Shown: piece after piece, positions 27,194 through 62,662 of the stretch | Layout: every line of letters begins with the position of its first letter | Numbering within the stretch: the first letter of the stretch is position 1 | From: Bacteroidales bacterium | GTDB taxonomy: Bacteria; Bacteroidota; Bacteroidia; Bacteroidales; UBA3663 | Reading direction: 5' to 3' | Assembly (NCBI GenBank): GCA_045627865.1 | Contig: JAZQOK010000028.1 | Location: 33,653-97,652, forward strand | DNA length: 64,000 bases | Position numbers and translations under genes: made by a program | Notes under the pieces: model-generated | Told to the model about the DNA's origin: nothing | Database searches by the model: none | Seen by the model: the letters and a program-made list of their open reading frames with translations, nothing else

Positions 27194-27203
27194 AAAGAGT
27201 TAT

Positions 27204-27779: not shown

Positions 27780-27789
27780 GATGGAATTT

Positions 27790-28167: not shown

Positions 28168-28281
28168 CCACCCATGCAGGTTGTCGTAGGCATACGACAT
28201 ATCTGCCGCAGTACCGCTGCGGTTATTGCCAATGATGTGGCCAAAGTCATCGTAGGTCAAGTTCTGTATGGTGTTGGTCAT
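28168..28281 (-). pseudogene. Rhs core remnant (second copy)
   Basis: MTNTIQNLTYDDFGHIIGNNRSGTAADMSYAYDNLHGW, nearly identical to the main Rhs segment. Confidence 0.85.
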
Positions 28282-28285
28282 AGAA

Positions 28286-30079: not shown

Positions 30080-30081
30080 CA

Positions 30082-30432: not shown

Positions 30433-30436
30433 TTAC

Positions 30437-30797: not shown

Positions 30798-30805
30798 TCT
30801 TAATA

Positions 30806-30952
30806 TTAAAATTTAGAAACACGATGATTAAATGCAGAAAAAAATATTCCCAATAGATTGGGCATAGTAAAACAACTATTAGCTGGTCTATAATTGGTAT
30901 TCCCATACGTATTCACGTTGGGATTAGCCATTGTAGATGCACTTACAATCTC
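30806..30952 (-). pseudogene. Orphan 48-codon variant of the lipase toxin's extreme C-terminus
   Basis: EIVSASTMANPNVNTYGNTNYRP-ANSCFTMPNLLGIFFSAF-NHRVSKF* versus main EIVSTSTMANPNVNTYGNTSYRP-YVYSHNSWKALRQSSN-NHSISNF*. Confidence 0.8.
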
Positions 30953-30958
30953 ATATTT

Positions 30959-31339
30959 TTATAATTTATGTTTCTGAAAGCTTAACGCTATAGTCAGCAA
31001 ATCTACCAATAACGATGGCATTGCGCTTATGCACATAACTTTACCTTCTGTATTATCCAATGGAATTGGCTTAAAGTCAGTGACCAGCCAAATATAATAT
31101 ATCCATGAAATAACAATTATAGCTACTATAATTATATTCTTATTAGTCAACTTTGAAGCTATTATTTTCGCTATTGATTCTAAAACAATAAACGGAATAT
31201 TAGTAATCAACGCTGTCACAAATGGAGTTATCTCATGATGAACAAATGGCTCCATACGACAAAATACAAAGAAAAATATCAAAGCGAGCAAAATCAATGA
31301 TATCAATGGAGATACGAGATAAAATACTGTTTTGTTCAT
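30959..31339 (-). CDS. Putative membrane immunity protein for the Rhs lipase toxin
   Basis: 126 aa, ~4 TM segments, TAATG overlap with the toxin stop. Confidence 0.7.
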   Translation of the reverse strand: MNKTVFYLVSPLISLILLALIFFFVFCRMEPFVHHEITPFVTALITNIPFIVLESIAKIIASKLTNKNIIIVAIIVISWIYYIWLVTDFKPIPLDNTEGKVMCISAMPSLLVDLLTIALSFQKHKL

Positions 31340-34767: not shown

Positions 34768-34787
34768 TTCTTTTATTGTTGTTTACG

Positions 34788-37700: not shown

Positions 37701-38123
37701 AGTTGTATAAAAATAGTCACTTTGGCTCTTTATTGAGTCAAGTATTTCGCTATAATTACTTCTGCTATTGACCTCTGTCCAATCAAACCCACCATTAGGA
37801 ATCAAAGATACACAGCCGCCAACATTAAAATCCCAATTAAGACCTACCCATGAAGCCTCACTGTTGACCTTAACACCTCGTGAATCATAATTGATAACCA
37901 ATGGTAGCTCTATATCTTTATACTGGAGTTTATACAATGGAACATTGATGTTTGCTGTGCCTGTGTATTCTCCAACATTGAAACGACCCTGTCGTTCGAA
38001 ACTAGTTGCTTCTGGGGACTTTTGTATTAAATAATCGTATTTTATATTATTTTCTGCAATCAGTTCGTCATTGTAGGAACTCAATGATAAAACAATAACT
38101 ACCAGTATAATACTTTTTTTCAT
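34788..38123 (-). CDS. Large secreted YD-repeat partner of the Rhs toxin (shell-forming, TcB-analogous)
   Basis: Signal peptide; SPEATSF...YTGTANINVPLY...ASWVGLNW, DMWGYYNG, GAGLRIK, TTYTYKPLVG...YDGFGRL; no toxin tip. Confidence 0.8.
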   Translation of the reverse strand: MKKSIILVVIVLSLSSYNDELIAENNIKYDYLIQKSPEATSFERQGRFNVGEYTGTANINVPLYKLQYKDIELPLVINYDSRGVKVNSEASWVGLNWDFNVGGCVSLIPNGGFDWTEVNSRSNYSEILDSIKSQSDYFYTTNRYLRGVVSDRNNGLTELDFYSVALPNASLLFFLDPETKKAIIIGPENGYFTIESEINNSGFPVTNKISAWTVADGNGYIYYFDVVEKSSFRNSEMYNSVWYISKIISPQGNLMEFKYESPSRMWLGPRRSEKEEIELEMIASTDIAAQFYDHKNEYFSHDNHYTEKPYLSSIETKEQTVSFITSEREDLHKGRKLNSIIAKSKLTNDIIKFIKFDYGYFVSNTNTGGDYLEGRFRYLDDKTLKSVLSKRLKLKSVSFAAKGEEDQVYSFGYNESKDFPLKTSCAIDMWGYYNGQENKNRNTTVYKNTMIPSLQYCDINPVIVKRYSNDGGNRLPNEKTMDAFILTQITYPTKGYTIFQYEPNSYRKYFLNNLAAGTAGSNNVESFAWFVSSVSIDANHQEITFQKDFTGKLTAVFQANSGNLASLEPGTSLYVELYRIGQESYKNPKQYKIGLSGNDNVNVYTTNNYTKSIDVDLPKGTYMLVTSISSKGKENGYVSGKLENSNPVTIKSGYETAKGAGLRIKAINSYDKNGTKLESTEYKYTNSDGTSSGKLINPLGFDSYTYFVVEDPNWASIYGILRLGSSAQRLTSFASIVSPNDVGYSRVEKFITTIDGQRKKEISYFQNDTIGCNIDDGYKSSIIRKDNGNLIKKEYIDDYNNIIREENYEYNVPNYESYKMNYIIEPIFPNNLNYDYGRNRISVYSFHRFQNRLKTRVVNEYVNDDDGKMYLSSRDSTSYSYDAINHQLKTIENTVLGTNTFHNTDYIYTSTDSSSTSQDMMNKHHIANAVVQKTESAIFNGVKTKIITTRNQYQLNYGNYRLSSTSESVGSYNMRERVRYGYFDNGNVKSIVKDSTNNIVYLWSYQGNYPIAKIEGLTYSIVEGILTSSFISVLQSKSEPSVENYNTIRSSLSDAGGLVTTYTYKPLVGMTSQTMPNGTTTKFDYDGFGRLMSVWDTKGKVISSYQYHNNK

Positions 38124-38144
38124 ACCTGAATATTCATGTGGGGG

Positions 38145-39209
38145 TTACTCATATACTTTTATTGTTATCTCTTGCTCTCTACACTTGATGTTCAACATAA
38201 GTGTGTTTCCGATAGGACGGCGTGACAAAGTTAGGCTTTCTTGCCATTCTCCTGCCTCTTGATTGTTATGGTGGGCGTGACCGAGAATGTTACCGAGTAT
38301 GTCGCAGGCACAGAAGTCGATGCTGCCTTCTCCATCGAGAGTATAGCAGATGTCCAGTCGTGTTCCGTCGGCAGAAAGACCTGCATTGATTGAAGCCAAA
38401 GCAGATTTTGTGGATGCTTGAGCTGCAGCATTAGCAGCATCGGCAATCGTTACTTGATTCAAGATGGAGTCATTGACTGCATCTTCGGCCAATTCCATCT
38501 GCATGACTGGCAGGAAGAGATAGGTCACGCTGTCAAAGGGCATAGTGGCTGAGTCTTCGGCCACGGTTGCCCATCTTATTGATTCCATGATGGGATAGCG
38601 ATAGCCGGCACAATACCAGCTGTAACGGTCGCATTGGATCTGGAATTCAATGGTGTCGCCAGCAAAATAAGTGTCAGTATAGTCGTCAAAGAAATGAATC
38701 CTCGTGATGTGTGGAATAGTGTCTTCTCCATCAGTCAGCATACCCATGCCATCGGCCACAGAATATCCCCAACCAGAACGTGAGGTTTTGATGTTCTCCT
38801 CTCTGCCTTGCCCCAAGAAAGAACCGGAGAGGCTGTCCCCGTACTGAAAAGGGTAACGGAGCATGGGCCTTTCCTGACTGTAGAGACAAAAGGCACGACG
38901 GCTCTGCTCTCCTTTGTCAACGAGCGTGTCGCCATGCACCAAATAATGTTGGATCCGTCCTCGTTCAAAGATGGCAATGGTGTCTCTGGCCGACGCAATG
39001 GTCTGCAGGAAATCCTGACTCTCTTTTGTCATCCGACCTAAAGGCCAGACTTCATTCGGTCCACCATCACCAGGAGCAACGTAATCCACTTGTACTTTAC
39101 ACAGTTTATCACCAGTTCTAAAGCTGTTTGCCTCGGAACTGATCGGTATCTGTGCAGTCATAGTATGCCAACAGCAAACCATGACAACAGTTGATAAAAA
39201 CAATTTCAT
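38145..39209 (-). CDS. Secreted protein with a T9SS CTD-like C-terminus, first gene of the Rhs module
   Basis: Signal peptide; YPFQYGD, WYCAGYRYP; tail CDILGN...TLMLNIKC...TIKV resembles a degenerate type A sorting domain. Confidence 0.65.
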   Translation of the reverse strand: MKLFLSTVVMVCCWHTMTAQIPISSEANSFRTGDKLCKVQVDYVAPGDGGPNEVWPLGRMTKESQDFLQTIASARDTIAIFERGRIQHYLVHGDTLVDKGEQSRRAFCLYSQERPMLRYPFQYGDSLSGSFLGQGREENIKTSRSGWGYSVADGMGMLTDGEDTIPHITRIHFFDDYTDTYFAGDTIEFQIQCDRYSWYCAGYRYPIMESIRWATVAEDSATMPFDSVTYLFLPVMQMELAEDAVNDSILNQVTIADAANAAAQASTKSALASINAGLSADGTRLDICYTLDGEGSIDFCACDILGNILGHAHHNNQEAGEWQESLTLSRRPIGNTLMLNIKCREQEITIKVYE

Positions 39210-39535
39210 TAGTAATATCCCAAAATAATGTTTATTTATATATATTTGTTTTTAGTTATAAGTTGCTATTGCGATCAAAAAGATACAGAATCTTTATCGA
39301 GTCTCAACAACAAGTAGCAAGTATGAATGGCTATCTTTCTGGCATATAGACAGATTTTCTTAACCATAATCAATTGCAAATGTATTTCTTCGTTTGGAAA
39401 GTATAACGGAACTCATAAAAAAATAAAATAAAAAGATATAAATTAGCAAAAATAATACACAAAAACGCACTTCCGCTTTGCAAAAATAAATCGAATAATG
39501 GTAACTGCATCAATAAACAAAGCAATTATTTAAAA

Positions 39536-39758
39536 AGGAAAAGAGAGGTTCTCACGAATCCCTCTTTTCCTTGAAAAAACATTTACTAAACATTCTTGAT
39601 TCATAATCCGAAGATTATTGAACTCTATTACCTAAAATCACATTTATAAAATAAACACTCTTACATTACATTTGGGTTCTAAAACACATTTGGGCATATA
39701 AAACTTAATACACACTTGATATATAATTGCGGACTATATATTGTCTTTTTTGTTTTGC
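39536..39758 (-). ncRNA. Candidate small RNA 1 (~220 nt)
   Basis: Promoter TTTG(39794-39791)-N20-TATCTTTG(39770-39763), no substantial ORF, terminator 39536-39572; 3' part paralogous to candidate 2. Confidence 0.6.
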
Positions 39759-40062
39759 ACTGCAAAGATAGGGCGAATTACTGAGCCCTCCAAATATTTT
39801 CACAAAAAAATGCAATTTTGTGTGCAATTTTATATAATTTGTTGCATTTTTATGTTGCGCAACATATTTTTTGGTAGTTAAAGGACAAAAATTCTCAAAA
39901 AAAGTAACGAATCAAGTCCAAAACAAGAAATTTGGTGCTTTCCGAAAGTCGGTCAGCAACAAATTGCAAGTTTAAATCAGATCTGTTGGATCAGCTTCTT
40001 CAATCTCAAGAAGAGTTCTCTAACTCTATTGAAAATGGAAATCAAAGATAACAAATAGAGGG

Positions 40063-47644: not shown

Positions 47645-48226
47645 ATGTCTTTCGATTTCCAGGAATTTCTTTCAGCATTTATTGTCATCTTCGCTATGAT
47701 TGACGTGACAGGACTTACGCCAGTGGTCATTGACCTCCAGCAGAAGTCCGGTCCGGTCAATGCGGTTAAAGCTGCGCTCTATTCTCTGATCGTCTTAGTT
47801 GCATTTCTCTTTGCCGGAAGTACGATTCTTGATCTTTTCAACGTAGATATTCATTCGTTTGCAGCTGCCGGTGGTGTCGTCATCTTCCTGATGGGACTTG
47901 AGATGACACTCGGTCGTGAGATATTCCGTTATAGCGATGGACCCCAAGGCTCAACGACCATCGTGCCGGTTGTCTTTCCGCTCATTGCAGGTGCCGGTAC
48001 CTTTACCGCACTCCTCTCCCTTCGTGCTGAATATAGCATTATGAATATTCTTTTGGCTCTGGCCTTGAATATCCTCATTGTTTATATAGTATTACGCAAC
48101 GTCCGCGCTCTTGAACGAGTGCTCGGGCAGGGCGGCATCTATGTCCTTCGCAAGTTCTTCGGTATCATTCTTCTCGCCATTGCCGTGAAGTTGTTTACCA
48201 GCAACATTGCCTATTTACTCTCATAA
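47645..48226 (+). CDS. MarC family membrane protein
   Basis: 6 TM segments; VPVVFPLIAGAG; RKFFGIILLAIAV. Confidence 0.88.
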   Translation: MSFDFQEFLSAFIVIFAMIDVTGLTPVVIDLQQKSGPVNAVKAALYSLIVLVAFLFAGSTILDLFNVDIHSFAAAGGVVIFLMGLEMTLGREIFRYSDGPQGSTTIVPVVFPLIAGAGTFTALLSLRAEYSIMNILLALALNILIVYIVLRNVRALERVLGQGGIYVLRKFFGIILLAIAVKLFTSNIAYLLS

Positions 48227-48227
48227 T

Positions 48228-50105
48228 ATGAAAAAGTTTTTCTCACTCATCAGCACATTGATCATCGCCTGCAGCGCTCACGCTGTCACGGTCTACACTA
48301 TCGGTGATAGTACCATGGCCAACAAACCGACCGACAAGGACAATCAGGAACGAGGTTGGGGACAGATGCTCAGCGGATTCTTCAGCGACGATGTCGTTGT
48401 CGAAAACCATGCACTCAATGGACGTTCTTCCCTGAGTTTCTATCTCGAGGGTGAATGGCAGAAAGTATATGATAAACTCCAGCCGGGAGATTATGTGTTC
48501 ATCCAATTCGGACACAACGACGAGAAGATCAAATCAGCCCGTCGAGGCACTCGTCCAGGTTGGCCGGAACCAGCACCATGTCCAGATCAGTGGGGAGTTA
48601 CAAACGACAGCATTACCACCTCTTTCGATGGTATGCTCCGTCTCTTTGTCGAACAGACCCGTCAGAAGGGTGGCATCCCGGTTCTTTTCAATGCCATCGC
48701 ACGACGCAACTTCTTCGAAAATAAGAATGCCGCCGAAGAGGATGACCTCTTTGGTAAGGGAACAACCCAGAAGCAGGAGGGTGACACCCTGATCGAAACA
48801 CACATCATCACCCGTGCTGATGGCACTGTCGATGATTATCTCGAAGCGCCACGTCGTGTAGCCCGTGACCTCAAGGTTCCGTTTGTTGAGATGAACAAGA
48901 TCAGCAAGGAGCTCGTTCAAGGCCTGGGTATCAAGGAGAGCAAGAAACTCTTCTGTTGGATTCCTAAAGACACCAACCTGGCCGCCCCTAAAGGACGTGA
49001 AGACAATACTCACCTCCGCATTTGGGGTGCCCGTCAGATGTGCCGTGCCACCATCGACGCCATCGGAGAGGCTGTTCCTGCCCTCAAACCCTATATCCGC
49101 AAATATGATCTGGTTGTAGCCAAAGATGGTTCTGGTGATTTCTTTACGGTCCAGGAGGCAATCAATGCGGTACCTGACTATAACAGCCAGGAGCTCACTA
49201 TCCTGCTCCAGCCTGGCGTCTACAAGGAGAAGCTGGTTATCCCGGCAAGCAAGACGCATGTCACACTGATTGCCAAGACCGAAGGTCAGAGCATCATATC
49301 TTACGATGATTACGCTAACCGCATCTCCGACATTACCGGTCGCAAATTAGGGACATCAGGCAGTGCAACAGTATATATCTATGCCACCGATTTTGAGGCA
49401 CGCGGCATTGTGTTCGAAAACACCGCATCAAATGTATCCTGGGAGGCTAAAAAGAGCGGAGTCGGACAGGCTGTAGCTGCGTTGGTTTCGGGCGATAAGA
49501 TCATCTTCCGTCGCTGCAAGTTCCTCGGACATCAGGATACACTCTATGCCTACGGACGCAAATCTGATCCAAAGAGCGATGAGGCGAAGGCTGAAGCCTT
49601 GGTTAGCCAGATGCCCAAGGACCAGATGAGCCGACAGTATTACGAAGATTGTTACATCAGCGGTACGGTCGATTACATCTTTGGATGGGCAACCGCCTAT
49701 TTCAACCGATGCGAGATGCACTGCATCGGCGATGGATATGTAACCGCCTCTGCCACACCCAAGGGTCTCAACTATGGTTACATCTTCAACGAATGCCGCA
49801 TTACCACCGAACCAGGCGTCAAAGCCTATCTGGGTCGTCCTTGGCGTCATTGGGCACAAACCATCTTCCTGAATTGCCAGATGGAAAACATCCAGCCACA
49901 AGGATGGAAATCTTGGGGCAATCCTGAGACCAAAAAGACTACCGTCCGTTATGCTGAATACAACAGCAAGGATCTGCTGGGTAATCCGGTTGATACATCA
50001 CATCGTGTTGTCTGGAGCCGTCAGCTCACATCGAAGGAGGCCAGTACATTCTCTGCCCTCAATGTACTGAAAGGTGTCGATAACTGGAACCCTCAAATGC
50101 AATAA
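48228..50105 (+). CDS. Bifunctional pectin esterase: SGNH acetylesterase (CE12) fused to pectin methylesterase (CE8)
   Basis: Signal peptide from ATG 48228; GDSTMA, GWGQ, GRSS, QFGHND, DNTH; then VAKDGSGDF, QAVA, QDTLY, GTVDYIFG, YLGRPW. Confidence 0.9.
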   Translation: MKKFFSLISTLIIACSAHAVTVYTIGDSTMANKPTDKDNQERGWGQMLSGFFSDDVVVENHALNGRSSLSFYLEGEWQKVYDKLQPGDYVFIQFGHNDEKIKSARRGTRPGWPEPAPCPDQWGVTNDSITTSFDGMLRLFVEQTRQKGGIPVLFNAIARRNFFENKNAAEEDDLFGKGTTQKQEGDTLIETHIITRADGTVDDYLEAPRRVARDLKVPFVEMNKISKELVQGLGIKESKKLFCWIPKDTNLAAPKGREDNTHLRIWGARQMCRATIDAIGEAVPALKPYIRKYDLVVAKDGSGDFFTVQEAINAVPDYNSQELTILLQPGVYKEKLVIPASKTHVTLIAKTEGQSIISYDDYANRISDITGRKLGTSGSATVYIYATDFEARGIVFENTASNVSWEAKKSGVGQAVAALVSGDKIIFRRCKFLGHQDTLYAYGRKSDPKSDEAKAEALVSQMPKDQMSRQYYEDCYISGTVDYIFGWATAYFNRCEMHCIGDGYVTASATPKGLNYGYIFNECRITTEPGVKAYLGRPWRHWAQTIFLNCQMENIQPQGWKSWGNPETKKTTVRYAEYNSKDLLGNPVDTSHRVVWSRQLTSKEASTFSALNVLKGVDNWNPQMQ

Positions 50106-51289
50106 TGACTATGAAAAGAAATATTATCACCATACTCGCTGTTTTGCTTGCGACATCTGTATTTGCTGCTGAGACCAACTCTCTCCGCATGGTCAAATCC
50201 GAGATAGTGCGCAATCCCGAGGCAAAGAACATAGACTTCAACACCGTTTGGAAATGGAATTACACCCATGGTCTCCTTCTGCAGTCAATGATGATGGCCG
50301 CCGAGAAGCATCCAACCATCGAAGCAACCGTCGACCAGTATGTCAAGCAGTATCTTGATAGCATGATCATGGCCGATGGCACCATCCGAACCTACAAGAA
50401 GAGCAATTATACCCTCGATCACATCAACCCGGGCAAGATGCTCATCATGGCCTACGAGAAATATCAGGAGCCACGATTCAAAGTTGCACTTGATACCCTC
50501 TACAGCCAATTGTTGAGTCAGCCTCGTGTATCCGAAGGTGGATTCTGGCACAAGAAAGTATATCCGAACCAGATGTGGCTCGATGGCATCTATATGGAGG
50601 CACCATTCTATTGTGAGTATGCCAAACGATATCTCGATGGCGAGGCCCAGCAGAATGCCTACAACGATGTCGTCAACCAGATCATGGTCGTTGCACGTCA
50701 TACCTACGATCCCGAGTATGGACTTTATCGTCACGCTTGGAATGAAACCAAAGAGGAGGCCTGGTGCAATCCGGAGAACGGACAGTCCATGCATGTCTGG
50801 GGACGTGCCTTAGGCTGGTATTGCATGGCAATGGTCGATGTTCTGGGATACCTTCCAGAGGAGCATCCTGGCAGAGACTCCATCATCTCTATTCTGAGCC
50901 CTCTCTGCGAGAAGATCCGCAGCATGCGCGACAAAGATTATGGCATCTGGTATCAGGTTATGGATCAGGGCCAACGGAATGGAAACTACCTCGAGACCTC
51001 ATGCTCGGTAATGTTTGCCTACACTTTCGTCAAAGGTGCACAGAACGGTTGGTTGTCTGAGGACTTCCTCGAAACCGGCAAACTGGTTTATGATGATTTG
51101 AACAACTACTTCATTCGCGAAGATGGTGACGATGTCATATCCATCACTCGCGTTTGCGCAGTTGCTGGCCTTGGAGGCAAGAACTATCGTACAGGCAACT
51201 ATGAATACTATATTCATGAGCCTGTCCGCGACAATGATCCCAAGGCTGTAGGTCCATACATCATGACCTCACTCCTACTGGGAGAATGA
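50105..51289 (+). CDS. Unsaturated rhamnogalacturonyl/glucuronyl hydrolase (GH105)
   Basis: WNYTHG, LDHINPG, GGFWHK..YPNQMWLDGIYM, WGRALGW, YLETS, NDPKAVG. Confidence 0.92.
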   Translation: MTMKRNIITILAVLLATSVFAAETNSLRMVKSEIVRNPEAKNIDFNTVWKWNYTHGLLLQSMMMAAEKHPTIEATVDQYVKQYLDSMIMADGTIRTYKKSNYTLDHINPGKMLIMAYEKYQEPRFKVALDTLYSQLLSQPRVSEGGFWHKKVYPNQMWLDGIYMEAPFYCEYAKRYLDGEAQQNAYNDVVNQIMVVARHTYDPEYGLYRHAWNETKEEAWCNPENGQSMHVWGRALGWYCMAMVDVLGYLPEEHPGRDSIISILSPLCEKIRSMRDKDYGIWYQVMDQGQRNGNYLETSCSVMFAYTFVKGAQNGWLSEDFLETGKLVYDDLNNYFIREDGDDVISITRVCAVAGLGGKNYRTGNYEYYIHEPVRDNDPKAVGPYIMTSLLLGE

Positions 51290-51366
51290 TACAATATTTA
51301 AACCTCCCAGTTCTAATTCTGTCAAATAAACAAAAAGCCCAAATAAACAAAATCACTTAATCTAAT

Positions 51367-51573
51367 ATGCTTAAAGTTCTATTTGCACGTCATCGTGCCG
51401 CCTATTTCAAATTGGCTCTTAAATACTGGGTCATGCCTGGTCATGTGTACAAGCTTGCACATGGTGGTCGAGCACATGGTGGAAAAGATTCCAAGATCTG
51501 CCACGAGTTGCTTGAGATGAGAATTGTACACCGTCACCATTATTCCCAGGATCCGAACCATTATGAGATGTAA
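51367..51573 (+). CDS. Small basic, His-rich hypothetical protein (68 aa)
   Basis: ATG after an A-rich leader (CTTAATCTAAT); fills the gap and overlaps the GH97 start by 11 nt. Confidence 0.55.
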   Translation: MLKVLFARHRAAYFKLALKYWVMPGHVYKLAHGGRAHGGKDSKICHELLEMRIVHRHHYSQDPNHYEM

Positions 51574-53524
51574 GCTCCTCCTCTTCTCTGTCATTGCAGG
51601 AACTGCAACAGCACAAACCGTCAGCAGCCCTGATGGTAAGTTGTCTCTCTCGGTTCAGACCGGCGCAGAGATGACCTACTCTGTCTCGTACAACGGCCAA
51701 ACAGTTCTTAACCCTTCGTCGGTCGGACTTATTGCCAACTATGCTGATCTGGCCAAAGATCTTCGTCTAATCAAAGCAGAGATCGATACCGTGCGTAACA
51801 GCTACGACATGACACGTACCAAGTCGGCTCACAGCGACTATGTTGCGACTCGTCTGCGATGCCAGATGCAGAACCCTGAAGGATGGCCTATCGATGTAGT
51901 ATTCCAACTCTCGAACAATAATATTGCTCTCCGTTACGAAGTCAACAAACGCGAGGGCAAGGAGACCGGCAGCATCCGCGTAATGGAGGAGAAAACCGGT
52001 TTCGCCTTCACTGATGGAACAACTGCATTTGTCTGTCCTCAGAGCGATGCAATGATTGGCTGGAAACGAACCAAGCCAAGCTATGAAGAGGATTACATCT
52101 ACGATGCCCCGCTCACGACACGCAGTCAGTTCGGCCACGGCTGGACCTTCCCTTGCTTGTTCAACGTGCACGACAACCAGAACGCAAACCTCTGGTTGCT
52201 TATCAGCGAAACGGGTGTGGATAGCCGCTATTGCGCTTCCCACCTCTCAGACTTCAGTCAGAACCGCGCTACAATCGCTTTTCCAATGCCAGAAGAGAAC
52301 AACGGCAATGGAACCATCGAGCCCGCCTTCTCTTTGCCAGGTGCCACACCGTGGCGCACATTGACCATTGCCGACAACCTCGCTCCGATTGTTGAGACCA
52401 CCGTTATGTACGATGTTGTCGAGCCTCGTTATGAAACTCGGAATGAATACAAGTTCGGACGTGGTACCTGGAGTTGGATTCTCTGGCAGGACGGCTCTAT
52501 CAACTACGAAGATCAATGCAAATACATCGACCTCGCTTCGGCTATGGGCTATGAATATGTATTGGTTGACAACTGGTGGGATCTGCAGATTGGACGCAAA
52601 GAGAATCCCGTCAATGGGCACAGCATCGAGGATGTCATTCAGTACGCCCATTCCAAAAATGTGGATGTCTTCCTCTGGTATAGCTCAAGCGGCTACTGGA
52701 ACGACATTGTTCAGGGTCCAATCCATCACATGGATAACAGTATCATCCGAAAGCGCGAGATGCGCTGGATGAAAGAGATGGGTGTGAAAGGCATCAAAGT
52801 GGACTTCTTTGGCGGAGACAAACAAGAGACCATGCGTCTGTACGAAGAGATTCTTTCCGATGCCGACGATCATGGCTTGATGGTTATCTTCCATGGCTGC
52901 ACACTGCCACGCGGTTGGGAACGCATGTATCCTAATTATGTCGGCAGCGAAGCTGTGTTAGCCAGCGAAAATATCTATTTCGATCAGCGATTCTGCACCA
53001 ACGAGGCACAGAACACCTGTACACATCCATTCATCCGCAATGCCGTCGGAGCCATGGAATTCGGTGGATGCTTCATGAACCGGTATATGGATCGCTCGAA
53101 CAGCCGTCGTCATCAGCGAATCACAACCAATCTCTTTGAGCTCTGTACTACGGTCCTCTTCCAGAACCCGATCCAGAACTTTGCTCTTGCACCCAACAAT
53201 CTGACCGATGCACCAGCTATCTGTATGGATTACCTACGCGAAGTTCCAACAACCTGGGACGAAACACATCTGTTGGGCGGATATCCTGGCAAATCGGTAG
53301 CAATGGCCCGTCGTCATGGCAACAAGTGGTATATTGCAGCCATCAATGCCGACGAGACTCCTTTTGAGCTTACCATCGAACCTGCACAACTGGGAATTGA
53401 TCCTGCCACTCTCCTGCTCTATTCTGGCGGTGATAACCCGATAATTTCTGCTCCAAAAGTTAAAAAAGGCAAAATTCGACTATCTATTGCTAAACAAGAT
53501 GGCATCCTTCTTGTCACAAAATAA
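51563..53524 (+). CDS. Glycoside hydrolase family 97
   Basis: SPDGKL, SYEE, TPWR, YIDLA, GIKVDFF, FHGCTLPRGWERMYPN..EAV, PTTWDET; start set to ATG 51563. Confidence 0.92.
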   Translation: MRCKLLLFSVIAGTATAQTVSSPDGKLSLSVQTGAEMTYSVSYNGQTVLNPSSVGLIANYADLAKDLRLIKAEIDTVRNSYDMTRTKSAHSDYVATRLRCQMQNPEGWPIDVVFQLSNNNIALRYEVNKREGKETGSIRVMEEKTGFAFTDGTTAFVCPQSDAMIGWKRTKPSYEEDYIYDAPLTTRSQFGHGWTFPCLFNVHDNQNANLWLLISETGVDSRYCASHLSDFSQNRATIAFPMPEENNGNGTIEPAFSLPGATPWRTLTIADNLAPIVETTVMYDVVEPRYETRNEYKFGRGTWSWILWQDGSINYEDQCKYIDLASAMGYEYVLVDNWWDLQIGRKENPVNGHSIEDVIQYAHSKNVDVFLWYSSSGYWNDIVQGPIHHMDNSIIRKREMRWMKEMGVKGIKVDFFGGDKQETMRLYEEILSDADDHGLMVIFHGCTLPRGWERMYPNYVGSEAVLASENIYFDQRFCTNEAQNTCTHPFIRNAVGAMEFGGCFMNRYMDRSNSRRHQRITTNLFELCTTVLFQNPIQNFALAPNNLTDAPAICMDYLREVPTTWDETHLLGGYPGKSVAMARRHGNKWYIAAINADETPFELTIEPAQLGIDPATLLLYSGGDNPIISAPKVKKGKIRLSIAKQDGILLVTK

Positions 53525-54640: not shown

Positions 54641-56356
54641 ATGAAGAAATTTTTACTTCTTGTGTCTGTCGCAATGACAGCATTCTGCTCTATGTCAGCA
54701 CAAGACATTAGTCTTGTTAATGGAGGAAGCGTCGAAAAAGTTTCTGAAGATGGCCGTTATGCCGTTTTCACCAACGAAGGTACCCTCTATCTTCTCGACC
54801 TGAAGGCTACCGATGAGGACAAAAAGATTACCATCTTCGAAGCAAACGATGAGACCGGCATCCATTACAACATTGGTTTCGGACACATCTTTTCGGACGA
54901 CAACACCATGGTTGGTCAGACTACCGACAATACTCCAGCCATCCTTAAGAATGGCGAGTGGACTCTCCTTCCTGTAAAGGAGTCTGATTTGGAACCTGGC
55001 AAAATCAACAGTGCAGATGCTATCACTCCTGATGGAAGCCGTATTTGTGGTGGCATTGCTATGGATGCATTCTCAATGGATGCCAAAGAGCCAATGCTCG
55101 TTCCTGTAGTTTGGGACAAACAGGCTGATGGCACCTATGGCCAGTACACTGTTCTGCCTTATCCAAAGGCAGACTTCACCGGCGCAGTTCCTCAGTATGT
55201 TACCGCTCGTGATATGAGTGCCGATGGCAAGACCATCATCGGTCAGATTACCGACAACTCTGGTTTCTGCGTTTATCCAATCGTCTATCATCAGGATGCC
55301 GAAGGCAAATGGAGCTATGAGCTGATCCTTGCGGATAAGGTCTATGATCCAAATGGAGTGTTCGCACCATATCCTACCTATGAGCCTCAGATGCCTAATG
55401 CAGAGGATTATATGGACGAAGCAGGCATGACTGCATACGAGACAGCATCTCAGGCTTATATGGATTCTTTGATGGCTGCATATGAAACCGGAGAATGGCC
55501 ATCATACTATCCTAACCCTTCAGACTTCTTGAGTGGCGAGAACATGACTATCTACGATTCTCTCTTTAACAAATATCAGGTCGAGGACCAGGCTTATCAG
55601 GATTCTCTTAATGCCTATTTTGACAGTTATCAAGCCAATACCACCGGAGCCTCTTTCGAGTTTAACATCGCTTACCTCTCGGCCGATGGCAAATATGCTG
55701 CAATGACCTATGTTCAGCCAGGCGAATCTTTCTGGGATCCTGACCAGAATTTTGTATACCGTTACAATATTGAGACCGACGCTCTCGAGATGTGTGAGCA
55801 GGAGGGCTCTGCATCTGGCATCATGTCCGATGGCACTGTATTGTTTCATTCTTCATACAATGGAAGCATGTGGCAGCGTACCGCTCACGTAATGAACATC
55901 GGAAGTACAGAGGCGGCTCCATTAGAGGACTACATCGCAACCAAGAGCGCTAAGGCAGCTGATTTGTACAAAAAGAGTCTGACTGTCGAGATTATCGCGT
56001 TTGACCAGGAGACCTGGGAGCCACTTGAGGAGCCAGCAGACAAACTGGTACTGGGTGGTACTACCTCATGCAACCGTGATGGTTCTATCATCTGCGGCTG
56101 GACTTACAACGAAGGCAATGTAAATGCTGATTGGTATATTCTTGGTTATATCATCGACCTCACTTCGTTCGATGATTACACAAGCATCAAGACTCTTGCA
56201 GCCAACAACAAGATTACCTCAATGGTTGTTACAGACCTCAACGGTGCGGTTGTAAACACCACTGGCAGCATCAAGGACTTGAACAAGGGTACTTATCTCG
56301 TTACTACCAAGACCGCTGACGGCCAGACCAAGACCATCAAGGTTTGCAAGAAGTAA
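54641..56356 (+). CDS. Secreted beta-propeller-like protein with T9SS-type C-terminus
   Basis: Signal peptide; repeated S.DG blades (VSEDGRY, ITPDGS, MSADGK, LSADGKY, NRDGS); tail TDLNG...KGTYLV...TIKVCKK; promoter at 54535-54542. Confidence 0.75.
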   Translation: MKKFLLLVSVAMTAFCSMSAQDISLVNGGSVEKVSEDGRYAVFTNEGTLYLLDLKATDEDKKITIFEANDETGIHYNIGFGHIFSDDNTMVGQTTDNTPAILKNGEWTLLPVKESDLEPGKINSADAITPDGSRICGGIAMDAFSMDAKEPMLVPVVWDKQADGTYGQYTVLPYPKADFTGAVPQYVTARDMSADGKTIIGQITDNSGFCVYPIVYHQDAEGKWSYELILADKVYDPNGVFAPYPTYEPQMPNAEDYMDEAGMTAYETASQAYMDSLMAAYETGEWPSYYPNPSDFLSGENMTIYDSLFNKYQVEDQAYQDSLNAYFDSYQANTTGASFEFNIAYLSADGKYAAMTYVQPGESFWDPDQNFVYRYNIETDALEMCEQEGSASGIMSDGTVLFHSSYNGSMWQRTAHVMNIGSTEAAPLEDYIATKSAKAADLYKKSLTVEIIAFDQETWEPLEEPADKLVLGGTTSCNRDGSIICGWTYNEGNVNADWYILGYIIDLTSFDDYTSIKTLAANNKITSMVVTDLNGAVVNTTGSIKDLNKGTYLVTTKTADGQTKTIKVCKK

Positions 56357-56390: not shown

Positions 56391-56421
56391 GACCGGCTCT
56401 CTTTCCAGAGGGTCGGTTTTT
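56391..56421 (+). terminator. Intrinsic terminator
   Basis: ACCGGCTCT...AGGGTCGGT-TTTT downstream of the 54641-56356 gene. Confidence 0.7.
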
Positions 56422-56442
56422 CATTATCTGCATAGAGGGTGT

Positions 56443-56729
56443 TCGAATCTAAAACTTCGGAAGCAGCGCAACACGAGTTTTGCTCGAATCTAAAACTTCG
56501 GAAGCAACGAAACAAGAGTTTTGCTCGAATCCAAAACTTCGGAAGCAACGCAACAAGAGTTTTGCTCGAATCTAAAACTTCGGAAGCAACGCAACAAGAG
56601 TTTTGCTCGAATCCAAAACTTCGGAAGCAACGAAACAAGAGTTTTGCTCGAATCCAAAACTTCGGAAGCAACGAAACGCGAGTTTTGCTCGTTCCGAAAT
56701 TTTCGGAGGCAGCAAAACTCGCGTTTTTT
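56443..56729. repeat. 41-bp tandem repeat array (6 copies plus 1 degenerate)
   Basis: Unit TCGAATC(T/C)AAAACTTCGGAAGCAACG(C/A)AACAAGAGTTTTGC starts at 56443, 56484, 56525, 56566, 56607, 56648 and (degenerate) 56689; no spacers. Confidence 0.95.
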
Positions 56730-56748
56730 ATGAGATTAAAGGAAGTGA

Positions 56749-59064
56749 TTACTTAATAATCATCTTGCGGCCCTTGCGGATGTAAAGACTACCCTTGACA
56801 GGAGTCAGAACCTGATGGCCGAACAGATCATACGAAGCACGATCGACAGTATCAGAAGCAATTTGTTCAATACCAGATTCCACAGCAGAGAAGGTTACAG
56901 CAATCTTCACATTAGCCTTAATCAAATCGATAGTATAAGTGTTATCAACGACATCCGCTGTTACATCTTTACTATTTACCGTTACCTTCGCTAATTTATA
57001 GCCTTCATTTGGAGTGACAGTCAAGACAACCGAACTGCCATACTGAGGTTTGGTATTACTTACATTAGCTGTACCACCGTTACCTGTAGATAAGGTAACA
57101 GAGTAGGTATTGATCGTAAAGCTACCATTAACCTCCAAATCATGAGCAGGCATTACGCTTGCGCTCCAACCGGAGAAGGTATAACCCTCCTTGGTAGGAT
57201 TAGCAATTGATAGGGCTGTTCCAGACAAGACACTATCTGTAGCATAGACTTCGCCATCCACCTTGTATGTTACTTTGTAATACTGCTGGCGGAATTCTGT
57301 ACCATCAGCAGTCAAGACCGGTACACGCTTAGCGTTGGCAATGTAGCCATTATTGTCAATAACAAGCACATTGGCGAAAATCTTGTTATACTGGAGAGCA
57401 TTTACCAAAGTGGCTTTAGTTGGCATTGTAAGGGTATATTCCGAAGCTGCTGTATTGCCTGCCACCTGCTGATCGGCAGTAAAGGCTGGCACCGTGCTCT
57501 TTCCACTCACATAACTGCTTGCAATCATTACATCGTTAAATGTCAGTAAGACTGATGACTGGCCATACTTGCCACCCTTGCAGAAATAAGAGAGTTCAGG
57601 CATGTCGTCCAAGACACCGGCAGAAGCAGTTGTTGCAGAATAAAAATAATTAGACTGCTTCCATGCAGTTGTGGTACCACGCAGACTATCAGCAGTAAGA
57701 ACGAATGCTATAGTATAGCCATTTACATTGGTGAGGAACTCCGTGTTCGACTTAACCGTCACATTCAGGTCATTATCGATAATAGCCTCAGCTGCTGTAA
57801 TGTCAACCAAAGGGGTTGAAGTATTATAAGCATCAAGGCAGTTTAGAATACCCTCCTGGCCCTCACCGAAATATGGATCTGGGAAAGTCTTACGATCAAC
57901 GCAGCACTGTGGAGCGCCATCAAACGGAAGGGATGCGTATGCAGACGCATACATTGGGTCACTGGAATTATATTTGTGCCATGCAATGACCAAAGCATTA
58001 TCAGCACGTTTCTCCTTCACGGCCTCCATGCCGACCCAACCACGTGGACAGTAACCACATCCAGTACCCGTATATTCCTCGATAACACTAACGCGTGGTA
58101 CAATGTGAGTTAAAGTTATGAAAGCAAACTCCGAAGCAGCATTGCCGGCTTCATTCTCAACACCATTAACGGTATTGATGGCAATCGTGGCAGAGAAAGA
58201 ACCAATGGTATTAGGTGCATCAAACTCAATCGAAGCATAGCCAGACTTCAACAGACCTGCAGGAATAGGAGTCTCCATCGTACATGTGCCTGTGGTCTCT
58301 ACTCCATTTACATTCATAGTATAGCCGAAGTTCTTAATCTCATTCTTGCTATCAGAACCGAGCGAAACCAAAACGGTTGCCTTACCGCCCATAGCACAAG
58401 CGTCGGCATACAGGCCATTAATCACAAGAGAGTTCTCAGGCAAAACCATACCATCCACAAATATCTGGAGAGCAGAAACACCAAACTGAGAAGAATAATC
58501 GTCGAAAGCAGCAGTTGCCGAAGTAGCCAGATAAAGGCCTCCAGTGCTCATATTCGTTTGGGTAGTAGCAATAGGATATTGGTCATCCTGTGTAGTTGCA
58601 GTACTAACAGTAAAGGTATAGCCGACATAAAGGCCCTGAGCTGGAATAGTAACAGGAGTATCAAGTTCCACCTTGTTGTAGCCTACAGCAACACTGGCAA
58701 CACTCTTTGAGAATGCTTCTGAAGAACCCAAAGAAGAACCACCCCAAACAGATACTGCAGAAGACTTAGCAGAAATGATTGGCAAATTCACGGCAGTGAT
58801 CTTGGCTCCTTGCAAAACGCCATTACCTGGAACAAAGATTGCAACACGGAAAGTTCCTTTTGATCCAGTACCCAAACCATAGATATCGTTACCGAAATCA
58901 CCTAAATAATACCCCCAAAGGTCTTCAGTTTCGGCAACAGCAGCAGGTGCCTTTGCTACATTGTCCTTGAGCATCAGATTGCGGTTCATTTTGAACTCGC
59001 TCTGAGCCATAGCTGCCAATGACATCATTGCAGTCACGGCAAGAATAAAAAATCTCTTCATCAA
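56749..59064 (-). CDS. Omp28-related thioredoxin-fold secreted protein with InlB-B/Ig-like repeats and T9SS-type C-terminus
   Basis: Signal peptide; IEEYTGTGCGYCPRG; PTKEGYTFSGW; tail SYDLFGH...LYIRKGRKMIIK. Confidence 0.85.
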   Translation of the reverse strand: MMKRFFILAVTAMMSLAAMAQSEFKMNRNLMLKDNVAKAPAAVAETEDLWGYYLGDFGNDIYGLGTGSKGTFRVAIFVPGNGVLQGAKITAVNLPIISAKSSAVSVWGGSSLGSSEAFSKSVASVAVGYNKVELDTPVTIPAQGLYVGYTFTVSTATTQDDQYPIATTQTNMSTGGLYLATSATAAFDDYSSQFGVSALQIFVDGMVLPENSLVINGLYADACAMGGKATVLVSLGSDSKNEIKNFGYTMNVNGVETTGTCTMETPIPAGLLKSGYASIEFDAPNTIGSFSATIAINTVNGVENEAGNAASEFAFITLTHIVPRVSVIEEYTGTGCGYCPRGWVGMEAVKEKRADNALVIAWHKYNSSDPMYASAYASLPFDGAPQCCVDRKTFPDPYFGEGQEGILNCLDAYNTSTPLVDITAAEAIIDNDLNVTVKSNTEFLTNVNGYTIAFVLTADSLRGTTTAWKQSNYFYSATTASAGVLDDMPELSYFCKGGKYGQSSVLLTFNDVMIASSYVSGKSTVPAFTADQQVAGNTAASEYTLTMPTKATLVNALQYNKIFANVLVIDNNGYIANAKRVPVLTADGTEFRQQYYKVTYKVDGEVYATDSVLSGTALSIANPTKEGYTFSGWSASVMPAHDLEVNGSFTINTYSVTLSTGNGGTANVSNTKPQYGSSVVLTVTPNEGYKLAKVTVNSKDVTADVVDNTYTIDLIKANVKIAVTFSAVESGIEQIASDTVDRASYDLFGHQVLTPVKGSLYIRKGRKMIIK

Positions 59065-59093: not shown

Positions 59094-59699
59094 TTACTTT
59101 ACAACAACCTTGCGAACAGAGCCATCACTCATCATCTGAAGAAGAATACCCTTCTGACCAGCAACAGCCTTCTGACCGAGCATTGTATAGGCTGATTCCA
59201 CCTTAACAGCATTGAGTACAGACTTCAGTTTAGTCGGATTGTTTGAATAAATGACTGTTACCTTGTCTCCTGCCACACCATTGGCATAGATGGTAAATTC
59301 AATAACGCACTCGGCCTGTGAAGGAGCGTCCTTCTCAAAATCATAGCAAGACCATTCGGTAGCAGCAGACTTGGTCTCACCTGCAGCAACACTAACAGTT
59401 CCTGTTTCGTTGATGCCAGTTTGCTCATACATGAAACAATTGCCAGCAAAGCACTGCTGAACCTGAGTATTGGCTGGCAAAGTCATGACATTGACTCCCA
59501 ACTTGACCGATACAGCCTCTGCGCCCTTATTCTTAACCGAAGGAGATGGGAAAACAACCTCACCATCCTCTGGTATACCTACAATAGTCATGGTCTCGCC
59601 ATTGGCATATTCCTTACCAGCAGGATCAACCATTACCACTTGGGCAAAAGTACTTGCAGCCATCAAAGCTGCTACAAAAAGTGTAAAAGTTTTCTTCAT
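59094..59699 (-). CDS. Small secreted beta-rich (Ig-like) protein with CxxGxC motif and T9SS-type C-terminus
   Basis: Signal peptide; QQCFAGNCF; tail AYTMLGQK...GSVRKVVVK. Confidence 0.75.
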   Translation of the reverse strand: MKKTFTLFVAALMAASTFAQVVMVDPAGKEYANGETMTIVGIPEDGEVVFPSPSVKNKGAEAVSVKLGVNVMTLPANTQVQQCFAGNCFMYEQTGINETGTVSVAAGETKSAATEWSCYDFEKDAPSQAECVIEFTIYANGVAGDKVTVIYSNNPTKLKSVLNAVKVESAYTMLGQKAVAGQKGILLQMMSDGSVRKVVVK

Positions 59700-59723: not shown

Positions 59724-60527
59724 TTAGTTGTTGATTACCACATTCGTCTGCTCAGCCTGTAAAACGCCACTCTCATCATAGACGAATACAATGGCATGCA
59801 TATCGGCAGGTTTCCAGTAATCCTGGGCATCGATGCTCCAAGTGAGAAGACTCTCTGTTTTGCCAAAATTGATATCCTCACCCCACAGACCATTCATGGT
59901 AGAACGGAACACATGATTGTGAACATATTCCCTATTTGTCTTGTTGTCTGGCATCTGCTGTCTGGCAACAATATTATCCTCAGTCAACCATACCTGCACC
60001 TTGGCACTCTTTCCATCGGTAGCAGAAAGAGTGGCTGCTACAGTAATCTTGCACGAGACACTATCGTATTTGGCGTCCAACGCGATATTCACATCGGTTG
60101 TCAGCTGTATAGCCGAAGCGACAACCATTGGCCAATTGGTATAATCGTTGGTAGCCTCACCTCGATTGATCATTGCGACCGGCTGACCCTGGCTGTTTGA
60201 GAACCAATGATTCCAGTATTCTTTTCCATCGTCGGTCATCAAACCAGTCGCCGGATTGGTATTGGCAATGCCAAATGGACCACAATGGATGGCGACCGGG
60301 ATAACATTATCGCCATAAGCCTCTGGTTCCTGCATTTTGTGGATGACCTCAGTTGCCAATGGACAGTTAATACATTTCTGTCCGGTAAAATCCTCGATCA
60401 GAACCTTACGACTTGCCTCTACGGGTGCCACATAAACCAAACGTTCCTCCTCCGATATTTCAGAGCAGGCGACTGCAGCAAGTAACAATGGGACAAACCA
60501 GAAATTAAAAAATCTATTCTTCATCAT
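59724..60527 (-). CDS. Omp28 family outer-membrane lipoprotein (thioredoxin fold)
   Basis: Lipobox AVAC followed by acidic SEISEEE; LIEDFTGQKCINCP; YVHNHVFR. Confidence 0.88.
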   Translation of the reverse strand: MMKNRFFNFWFVPLLLAAVACSEISEEERLVYVAPVEASRKVLIEDFTGQKCINCPLATEVIHKMQEPEAYGDNVIPVAIHCGPFGIANTNPATGLMTDDGKEYWNHWFSNSQGQPVAMINRGEATNDYTNWPMVVASAIQLTTDVNIALDAKYDSVSCKITVAATLSATDGKSAKVQVWLTEDNIVARQQMPDNKTNREYVHNHVFRSTMNGLWGEDINFGKTESLLTWSIDAQDYWKPADMHAIVFVYDESGVLQAEQTNVVINN

Positions 60528-62174
60528 TTAGAAACTGTAGTTATAGTTGATGGTCAATCCCTTCGAAGCAGGTACATAACGGCAAACGCCACCCGTACAG
60601 TTGTATCCGGCACGTGTACGTCCGAAACTCAACATGACACGATGGGCATCGTAGTTATAGGTAGCTGCAACGTTATAGTAATGGGTCAAATCTCCATACT
60701 CACCTGGTGTGGGTTCTGTATGACCAATCTGATCGCTTACCGACACCATAAAATGTGGAGCCATCGAAAGTTCCAACAATCCGAAATACCAGTCACCGCT
60801 CTCATGCTCGGTGGTCAGATACTGCAACTCTCCACGCAATGAATACTTACGGTTGAATTTGTATTTACCCTCAGTAATAAAGATATTGCTATAGATGTTG
60901 CCGCCCTCGTTCTGAATGACACCCTTGTTATACTGCTGGTACATGTAGAGGAAATGCATCTCGTAGCTCTTGCTGAAACGGGCATCATATTGCAGGTTGA
61001 AATCCTGGTAGAAGATGTCGCCCGTCTTGAAGAAGTCATTTTCGACACCATCACTACCACGCTCGCCCTTGCTGAGATTGTTCTCTAGCCCCTTCACCAA
61101 CGAGTAGTTGAGTTTCAACTTATGCTTGCGGTTGAAGGTGTAACCCACCTGACCCTGATAGGCCCACTCGCCCTCCATCTGGGTTGCGTATGGGTAAAGA
61201 GCAGCCAAGGCATAGGTATGGTCAAGCGTGAAGGCTGGCAAATGGTTGATATAACCTGCCGAACACAATGGACTTGAAGTACGAACCGAACGGAACGACA
61301 TATTCTCCGAACGCTTGGCCTGCGCCAGCAACGAAAGACCACCCTGTGTATAGGTCATCGAAAGCATCGAGACTGTTCCCTTACCGTAGTTGTAGTTGTT
61401 GAGCGAGTTCGGATCCTGACTCTTCTGTGCATATTCGGCCAAAAGCGAGAGCCCCTCGAACTGATATTGCAGACGCATATCGAAAGCATTCACGAACTCC
61501 GGTACCTTCAGGCGGTAGTTGATCATATCGGCTGCGATGTCGGTGTCTGCCTTTTCGTACTTGTTTACCCACGAAGCACCAAGACTCAGGTAATGGCCCT
61601 TCTCAGACATGGCATCGCACCAGTCATTGATCGAGAGATCCAGATCAGCACCCGAAACGACAGACTCCTTGTCCCACGACCAATAGCGACGCTGCAGACC
61701 ACTCAAGGCCTTGATCGAGACACCCTTCAGCGGCTGAATAGCCAGACGGGCACCCAACAGGGAATTGTCGACGCCCAATGAACGCTGTTCGTAGGTACGG
61801 AGAATGAAACCCGAACCGAACTGCTCATAGAAAGTGCCGAGAGTCAGGTTGACCTTACCCAAACGACCCTTGACCCAGAAGTTTGGCAGGCCCCAGCCCT
61901 TGAACTTGTTGTAAGGATCGTTGAAGCCAGGCATTGGCCATTGGGTCAATTCAAAGCGGGCTCCGAAATCAAGGTGCTCGCTCTGTCCGAGGAACTCTGC
62001 ATAAGTGTTGGTGAGGAACGACTTGTTGTCGTATGAGTCGGCATAAGCGCCGATGGCCTCATCCACCTGCGGAGCAACCATCATATCGCTCTGCACAGAG
62101 CCTGAGATGTTGATCTCAGCCAAGGCTGTGGCAGCAAAGGCCGACAAAGCAGCCAGTGTAATGCTCTTCCTCAT
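60528..62174 (-). CDS. DUF6029-type outer-membrane beta-barrel with C-terminal CxxGxC
   Basis: Signal peptide from ATG 62174; YEQFGSG..LR.YE.R.LG.DN; amphipathic strands; GYNCTGGVCRYVP; terminal YNYSF. Confidence 0.8.
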   Translation of the reverse strand: MRKSITLAALSAFAATALAEINISGSVQSDMMVAPQVDEAIGAYADSYDNKSFLTNTYAEFLGQSEHLDFGARFELTQWPMPGFNDPYNKFKGWGLPNFWVKGRLGKVNLTLGTFYEQFGSGFILRTYEQRSLGVDNSLLGARLAIQPLKGVSIKALSGLQRRYWSWDKESVVSGADLDLSINDWCDAMSEKGHYLSLGASWVNKYEKADTDIAADMINYRLKVPEFVNAFDMRLQYQFEGLSLLAEYAQKSQDPNSLNNYNYGKGTVSMLSMTYTQGGLSLLAQAKRSENMSFRSVRTSSPLCSAGYINHLPAFTLDHTYALAALYPYATQMEGEWAYQGQVGYTFNRKHKLKLNYSLVKGLENNLSKGERGSDGVENDFFKTGDIFYQDFNLQYDARFSKSYEMHFLYMYQQYNKGVIQNEGGNIYSNIFITEGKYKFNRKYSLRGELQYLTTEHESGDWYFGLLELSMAPHFMVSVSDQIGHTEPTPGEYGDLTHYYNVAATYNYDAHRVMLSFGRTRAGYNCTGGVCRYVPASKGLTINYNYSF

Positions 62175-62662
62175 TATTTCTTGCCCTTCTTGCACTTACG
62201 AACTGCTTCGATGATCTCCTCCTCACCGCCATCGGTGTAACCGGTGTGGCGATAAACGATATTACCATTACCATCGATGACAGCAACGAATGGGATGCTC
62301 TGAATACCAAAGGCACGCTTAACGTCGCCCTGTGCATCGAGCAGAACTTCATATTCCCAACCTTCCTGAGCTACAAGAGGCTTAACCTTCTGTACATTCT
62401 GAGCTTCGTCGCAGCTGATAGCTACAAGACGTACACCCTCCTTTTTCCAATCATCATAAACCTCTGCGATGGCGTTAAGCTCGCGACGGCAAGGCTTGCA
62501 CCAGGTAGCAAAGAAATCGACGATGACAGGCTGACCATGAGTACCGATGGTATCAACGGCAACACTTTTACCATTGATATCCTTCAGAACAGTCTTAGGC
62601 ATCTGGGCAAAAGAAGTAGAACACACAATAACCAAAAACAATGTAAAAATCAGTTTCTTCAT
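62174..62662 (-). CDS. TlpA-family thiol:disulfide oxidoreductase
   Basis: Signal peptide; DFFATWCKPCRREL; SIP cis-Pro loop; promoter TATTTTTG at 62712-62719. Confidence 0.92.
   Translation of the reverse strand: MKKLIFTLFLVIVCSTSFAQMPKTVLKDINGKSVAVDTIGTHGQPVIVDFFATWCKPCRRELNAIAEVYDDWKKEGVRLVAISCDEAQNVQKVKPLVAQEGWEYEVLLDAQGDVKRAFGIQSIPFVAVIDGNGNIVYRHTGYTDGGEEEIIEAVRKCKKGKK

Follow-up and report, generated by a model that had tools for sequence, protein, structure and literature searches.

Results

Gene order and distribution

The window analysed here, a stretch of 64,000 nucleotides from a Bacteroidales contig, contains a run of genes that all lie on the minus strand. The run opens with a gene for a TlpA-type thiol-disulfide oxidoreductase (62174..62662, minus strand), identified by a domain scan, which has a signal peptide and a WCKPC motif (CKPC at 62489-62500) and is the predicted periplasmic donor in the pathway discussed below. 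The gene under study follows (60528..62174, minus strand); it encodes a DUF6029 outer-membrane beta-barrel of 548 aa, predicted from an HMM match and a 24-stranded model, with a C-terminal Phe and, as judged by eye, a signal peptide of 19 aa. Next come an Omp28-family outer-membrane lipoprotein with a CINC motif at 60363-60374 (59724..60527, minus strand; NF033782 match of 265.7 bits against a cut-off of 150), the predicted surface acceptor, and a 201-aa protein (59094..59699, minus strand). The last gene encodes a 771-aa Omp28-related protein (56749..59064, minus strand) with a TGCGYCPRG motif (CGYC at 58048-58059) and a T9SS-like C-terminus (by eye). This protein matches NF033782 weakly (E 1.9e-4) and an Omp28 profile at E 8e-8, and is predicted to be an HBP35-type surface thioredoxin; HBP35 itself was not matched in a PDB search with the single sequence. 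A promoter and terminator scan gave a result at chance level. In the available parts of two reports, Porphyromonas gingivalis has the run PG2175 (thioredoxin), PG2174 (uncharacterised), PG2173 (Omp28) and PG2172 (PorA) (PMC13744359, PMC4335976). PG2174 is probably the barrel orthologue, judging from its position; the gene order by locus-tag annotation is the same, and the function of this DUF6029 (PF19494) protein is undescribed.

DUF6029 was found in 79 of 301 genomes across the phylum, in 113 of 201 genomes of this order, and in 78 of 121 genomes of a distant class. The Omp28 domain exceeded its cut-off in 49 of the same 301 genomes, and all 49 carry the DUF6029 barrel, as judged from a comparison of lists in which related genomes are not independent; eight of the 301 have Omp28 matches below the cut-off and no barrel. 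Around the barrel, 225 distinct loci were picked by HMM match and length, with the cysteine motif described below not used as a criterion. A TlpA-like gene lies within 1.6 kb of the barrel in 205 of these loci (202 of the 219 whose upstream DNA is long enough), and 176 loci have an Omp28-like gene; this genome holds only two small ORFs with WCxPC. Acidic residues directly after the lipobox Cys act as a surface-export signal in Bacteroidota, and 68 of 95 lipobox-bearing Omp28-like proteins have at least two acidic residues at this place. In one family (f29), where Omp28 is mostly absent, the barrel is followed by a redoxin lipoprotein (~175 aa, CPHC) and a T9SS-tailed redoxin (~270 aa); the barrel motif there is CTSGICYE (loci L053-L061). 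This replacement of Omp28 by redoxins suggests that what is conserved in the downstream slot is a thiol enzyme and not a particular fold. At one locus (L063), the barrel is followed on its own strand, after 30 bases, by dsbD (3757-5820), and DsbD-like matches near the barrel also occur at loci L184 and L190. Within this taxonomic order, distant barrel homologues of ~490-510 aa were noticed at loci L219 (G325:C4) and L218 (G352:C541); genome G325 has one close and one distant copy.

Family and fold of the barrel

The barrel protein gave a full-length HMM match to PF19494 (DUF6029) over residues 9-548, with 524 bits against a gathering score of 27. No other family was detected in the Pfam scan, and its Atlas matches were DUF6029 throughout. 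By sequence, the barrel is an ordinary member of a family without a described function. An AlphaFold2 model from a 150-row alignment, whose rows were drawn from motif-bearing sequences, reached pLDDT 96.5 and pTM 0.92. The model is all-beta, with 24 strands counted from its DSSP list; the strands run from residue 3 (start of strand 1) to residue 528 of 529 (end of strand 24), with no separate domain. The protein has the features expected of an outer-membrane barrel: a signal peptide, an even number of strands, alternating strand faces, short periplasmic turns and a C-terminal aromatic residue, which is F in 528 of 698 homologues. Sequence searches of the PDB returned no solved relative, just a short spurious RecA stretch, and Foldseek returned generic barrels with TM values of at most 0.52. 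In the structural comparison by VIA, the barrel came closest to two 24-stranded ushers, FimD (Z 17.9) and PapC (Z 17.1), with rmsd 4.5-4.8 over ~368 residues and 12% identity. All structure-search matches cover only the barrel shell.

The CTGGVC hairpin and its conservation

The C-terminal end of the 548-aa protein, translated from the minus strand at 60528-60623, reads GRTRAGYNCTGGVCRYVPASKGLTINYNYSF*. An earlier note on this DNA, made from the letters alone, had pointed to a CTGGVC loop just before the last strand, in a span (60528-60610) that corresponds to the loop from about AGYN to the stop. The motif is indeed there, at 60582..60599 on the minus strand, as a Cys pair across a two-residue Gly-Gly turn (C526/C531 of the 548-aa protein, C507/C512 of the mature form). 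The note had also proposed structure prediction to place the loop. In the AlphaFold2 model the pair sits on a small beta-hairpin with strands 504-508 and 511-515, between barrel strands 23 and 24. Since the last strand of a barrel ends in the periplasm, this hairpin belongs to the last extracellular loop, L12 (60567..60614, minus strand), a 16-aa segment (RAGYNCTGGVCRYVPA) that is predicted from the model, covariation and loop length to fold into the lumen.

Among the 1496 ORFs of at least 300 aa in this genome, the barrel ORF alone has CxxGxC in its last 45 residues, which argues that the motif is more than chance. It occurs in all 121 close homologues, in 122 of 124 full-length representatives (50% clustering; 149 fetched), the exceptions being one SxxGxC and one unrelated C-terminus, and in 223 of the 225 loci, with both exceptions holding the motif in a neighbouring reading frame. 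In an alignment of 698 homologues of at least 440 aa (near-duplicates included, effective number 416), both Cys are present in 694; three sequences have a gap there and one has Ser-Cys. Apart from C507 and C512, no column of the barrel has a conserved Cys; the mature region of 415 of the 698 homologues has no other Cys, and the pair is near-invariant down to ~15% identity. The weighted frequencies are 0.99 for both Cys, 0.94 for G499, 0.99 for G504, 0.99 for G510, 0.95 for R513, 0.87 for P516 and 0.98 for G520. The length of the loop is also fixed: L12 has 16 residues in 695 of 698 homologues and L3 has 23 in 696, whereas the modal length of each of the other ten extracellular loops occurs in at most 499. 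L12 and L3 are the most conserved extracellular loops too (0.70 and 0.69). No selenocysteine form was seen in the 698 aligned sequences, though a TGA-truncated form could escape detection.

Two side observations concern the homologues. One of them (P0139) has SAGGIC, in which the first Cys is replaced by Ser and the second is kept, and may mark which Cys is attacked. Separately, the barrel gene is broken by an in-frame TGA at locus L059 (6001-7521) and by a change of frame at loci L050 (5665-7242) and L025; these may be assembly errors or pseudogenes.

Covariation and the position of the hairpin

Strand faces were assigned by hydrophobicity parity, with strand 18 set by hand. As a check of the method, of 116 strand-strand pairs among the 200 strongest couplings, 86 lie within one strand or between neighbouring strands; closure pairs between strands 1 and 24 were absent from the top 500. 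Loop L7 (61173..61304, minus strand; ~44 aa) shows the strongest bias, with 61 of 5742 lumen-facing pairs above z 3 against 17 of 5946 lipid-facing pairs (p 1e-7). For L3 (61761..61829, minus strand; 23 aa) the corresponding counts are 43/3133 and 26/3254 (p 0.018). Such strong couplings to residues that face the lumen round the barrel make it likely that L3 and L7 plug it, as far as covariation and, for L3, the fixed length can indicate. For L12 the counts are 17/2174 against 7/2260, with an uncorrected p of 0.025 that fails correction for 12 loops and comes from mutually dependent pairs; in a smaller alignment they are 25/2174 and 8/2260. The other nine extracellular loops showed no lumen bias in their couplings (p 0.15 or more).

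The individual couplings of L12 follow a pattern along the loop. Its base couples to L7 (T508/Y505-A306 and R502-L307, within the stretch 502-508 that covaries with L7) and to I408/S410, while its tip couples through G509-E449 and V511-D160, both partners lying 2-3 residues from periplasmic strand ends. E449 (mature numbering; 60771..60773, minus strand) is a conserved, lumen-facing residue of strand 20 near its periplasmic end. The L12 pairs at z 4-6 also include the lipid-facing partners Y487 and L477, which are probably noise. Many conserved charged residues line the barrel lumen in the alignment. The covariation therefore weakly suggests that the L12 hairpin folds into the lumen with L3 and L7 and reaches the periplasmic half. 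The suggestion in the earlier note that the hairpin folds into the lumen gains from this pattern and from the fixed loop length; what did not hold is the statistical signal for L12 once corrected.

Between proteins, the top covariation z was 7.2 for 205 barrel-TlpA pairs, against 8.5-10.2 in shuffled sets, and 7.8 for 176 barrel-Omp28 pairs, against 9.1; both alignments are too shallow to weigh against binding.

Comparison with nDsbD

TlpA-type proteins take electrons from DsbD's N-terminal domain (nDsbD), so the TlpA encoded next to the barrel is the kind of enzyme that reacts with hairpins of this type. The single DsbD of this genome (L085, G000:C33, ~67,600-69,600) has a DsbD_N Pfam match over the cut-off, and its N-domain contains CNDGMCTPP, with the same Cx4C spacing as the barrel hairpin. 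In 31 Bacteroidales rows the nDsbD Cys pair is invariant, with four residues between in the alignment; counted from the first Cys, the spacing is 4 in 14 of 30 sequences and 5 in 16 of 30, many of the latter with CC. Against solved nDsbD, the Bacteroidales Cys align with the catalytic site GCx5CYPP across a one-residue deletion (a weak match, E 0.026), and a PDB search with the single nDsbD sequence gave no match. The barrel shows the nDsbD-type pattern, namely Cx4-5C across a beta-hairpin followed by Pro (P516). In the accessible part of a study of nDsbD, C103-C109 is described as a redox-active cross-strand disulfide that a Trx fold attacks, docking to it as an extra strand (PMC4354306). For the earlier suggestion of a redox-active hairpin, it is the geometry and the gene context that find support: a beta-hairpin with a cross-strand Cys pair is predicted, spaced as in the Bacteroidales nDsbD active site, and its gene stands between those for a TlpA reductase and CxxC proteins of surface type.

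The 201-aa PorA-like protein

The 201-aa protein is assigned to the PorA family from profile, fold and hairpin matches. It matches 6KJK in a profile search (E 4.2e-6), with T9SS CTD matches as well; 6KJK is also the top Foldseek match, and the comparison with the PorA structure (VIA) gave Z 13.8 and rmsd 2.6 over 128 residues. Its architecture is that of the family, a FimH-like Ig N-domain with a short T9SS-like tail. The earlier note had placed a CFAGNC with the same spacing as CTGGVC in this protein, and it lies exactly at 59436-59453; its C64 and C69 also flank a two-residue hairpin turn. The further suggestion of a CxxGxC shared by both proteins needs rewording: the two hairpins are alike, but of 54 domains of the PorA-like family 26 have Cx4C, 21 have Cx3C and 7 have neither, and the Gly is often missing. 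What is common, at the level of sequence, is a hairpin tied by Cys, not a strict CxxGxC. nDsbD is absent from the listed fold matches of this protein, and the likeness of its hairpin to nDsbD is at motif level only. PorA-like domains were found in 48 of the 225 barrel loci, most of which have short flanks. Some secreted proteins are built of 2-3 PorA-like domains in tandem, and each of these domains has a Cys hairpin (L034:6863-8350, L084:10570-11703 and L083:2476-3603).

Discussion

The near-invariant Cys hairpin, its neighbours and its likeness to nDsbD can be read together as parts of an outer-membrane thiol-disulfide relay, in which electrons would pass from DsbD through TlpA, the barrel hairpin and Omp28 to surface CxxC proteins, with CTGGVC as the redox-active, membrane-crossing element. 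We give this reading a probability of about 50%. The wider proposal is slightly more tentative: DUF6029 would be the outer-membrane counterpart of DsbD, its nDsbD-mimicking Cx4C hairpin swinging through the lumen from TlpA to surface thioredoxins, and many Bacteroidota would possess a thiol wire from the cytoplasm to the surface (thioredoxin, DsbD, TlpA, barrel, Omp28, T9SS cargo). In such a relay, periplasmic TlpA would be reduced by DsbD. The predicted structure is a 24-stranded barrel plugged by L3 and L7, with L12 hanging into the lumen and its tip close to where strands 8 and 20 end on the periplasmic side. TlpA, which is built for nDsbD-type Cx4C hairpins, could then reduce the barrel hairpin from the periplasmic side. 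A loop hinged at Gly residues (G499/G504 and G520) would present the dithiol to the Omp28 lipoprotein at the outer mouth, and Omp28 in turn would keep T9SS-secreted CxxC proteins (HBP35-like and PorA-like) reduced. Alternating access of the hairpin is assumed here, as one model gives one conformation. The outward direction of electron flow is proposed because the WCxPC motif is of the reductase type. In the available text of PMC2907840, HBP35 is a surface T9SS protein with Cys-dependent thioredoxin activity, which indicates that surface thioredoxins exist and need an electron source.

Some observations count against the relay. The lumen signal of L12 is lost on correction, and the covariation of the barrel with TlpA or Omp28 did not exceed that of shuffled pairings. 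Loops L3 and L7 may block access to the hairpin from one face. In the accessible part of a study of Paraprevotella clara, the bead-bound Omp28-related protein 00502 degraded trypsin without cells and the genes 00503-00508 were dispensable for this degradation, the presence of the barrel among these genes being only possible (PMC9477747); we count this independence of 00502 against the relay. As far as the available portion of PMC12152298 goes, PorXY activation in P. gingivalis requires none of the four PorA Cys, which speaks against a redox role in that known function.

The same data were weighed under other explanations. The barrel may be a channel whose solutes are thiols, metal ions, heme or peptides. 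Its luminal Cys pair, kept reduced by TlpA, would then act as a redox gate or bind a metal or substrate, and no electrons would pass across the membrane. The loop-plugged lumen with its many conserved charged residues would suit such a channel, as would the homologue that has the second Cys only (SxxGxC) and the hemin binding of HBP35-type partners described in part of PMC2907840. Yet a channel leaves unexplained why CxxC proteins of two unrelated types occupy the outer operon slot and why the barrel occurs in all 49 clear Omp28 genomes, and we consider it unlikely, though a serious candidate. Short disulfide-tied loops occur in outer-membrane proteins, so the pair could instead form a permanent disulfide of structural purpose, holding an inward loop rigid, with the barrel a mere scaffold for Omp28; the dispensable PorA Cys, in the portion of PMC12152298 noted above, would agree with this. 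Near-total invariance down to ~15% identity in proteins that mostly have no other Cys argues against it, as do the reductase gene adjoining the barrel in 205 of 225 loci and the modelled hairpin geometry, which would be of the strained cross-strand type. We regard a permanent disulfide as improbable.

A shade less probable still is a pore of the usher kind that exports or assembles Ig-domain proteins of the PorA/Omp28 type, in which the Cys pair would hold cargo by a transient disulfide. FimD and PapC are the best structural matches, the Ig-fold neighbour of the barrel resembles FimH, and in the accessible parts of PMC7712824 and PMC12152298 PorA resembles FimH and is reported at the surface without T9SS. 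The usher match, on the other hand, is of the shell only at 12% identity, and the model contains neither a plug nor the NTD and CTD periplasmic domains of ushers; the lumen is apparently filled by loops of fixed length, the cargo carries T9SS tails, and a PorA-like domain occurs in only 48 of 225 loci, though flanks are mostly short. Very little weight is given to a polysaccharide export porin, a role proposed for DUF6029 in the available part of PMC9603273 on the ground that HHpred finds it similar to Wzi-like barrels close to OPX genes. Porins of the Wzi/Wzp type have 16-18 strands (18 in those for which the proposal was made) against 24 in the barrel model, the Wzi match (Z 12.2) is among the generic barrels, the listed neighbours are thiol proteins, and the Cys pair would go unexplained.

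The relay across the outer membrane may be compared with known electron-transfer systems. By analogy, the barrel may work like the DsbD/CcdA relays, as a membrane protein that has a single Cys pair, set between partners of the Trx fold, and a Cx4C..P hairpin spaced as in Bacteroidales nDsbD. It differs from them in being an outer-membrane beta-barrel with a loop-borne Cys pair and no homology to DsbD, and it is not a member of that group, as the Pfam scan and the all-beta model show no PF02683 alpha-helical inner-membrane domain. MtrAB-type conduits (PDB 6R2Q; a generic match at Z 12.0) likewise include a large barrel proposed for electron transfer across the outer membrane. In contrast to them, the four operon neighbours of the barrel are TlpA, Omp28, PorA-like and Omp28-like proteins, with no multiheme cytochrome, and the carrier would be the barrel's own dithiol. 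P. gingivalis HBP35 and PorA and P. clara 00502 are counterparts of the downstream secreted proteins, from the PorA profile and fold, the HBP35-like CGYCP and the Omp28-related annotation. Each was studied alone, and the available parts of those studies draw no link to the barrel or to an electron source.

The known thiol relays (DsbD, CcdA) reach no further than the periplasm, and the electron conduits known from the outer membrane rely on hemes. In a literature search, DUF6029 appeared only in the polysaccharide-porin paper (PMC9603273) and a thiol relay across the outer membrane was not found; subscription papers and supplements, for example P. gingivalis membrane-complex proteomics and Tn-seq tables, lie outside that search. 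The accessible text of PMC2907840 describes HBP35-type surface thioredoxins as active in vitro and names no electron source beyond the outer membrane. If the relay reading is right, and only then, the system would be new in kind: electrons would have a new route across the outer membrane, a dithiol shuttle built into a barrel. Bacteroidota of the gut, the rumen and the mouth could then reduce extracellular disulfides, and Omp28, PorA and HBP35-like proteins, so far studied separately, would be tied together. The idea comes down to two residues that are open to mutation and trapping.

Other features of the window lie outside this operon. Downstream of the 771-aa gene, the region 56400-56750 is intergenic, and its spurious ORFs repeat a unit of ~40 codons, suggesting a tandem repeat of ~120 bases. 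The gene at 54641-56356 (plus strand) encodes a secreted protein of 571 aa that has no Pfam family and whose weak T9SS tail scores just below the TIGR04183 cut-off. The region 26000-40000 has a GC content of 0.35-0.43 against ~0.50 elsewhere and was possibly acquired. Three ORFs at 48207-53524 (plus strand) resemble, by eye, what we take to be pectin esterase and glycoside hydrolase genes.
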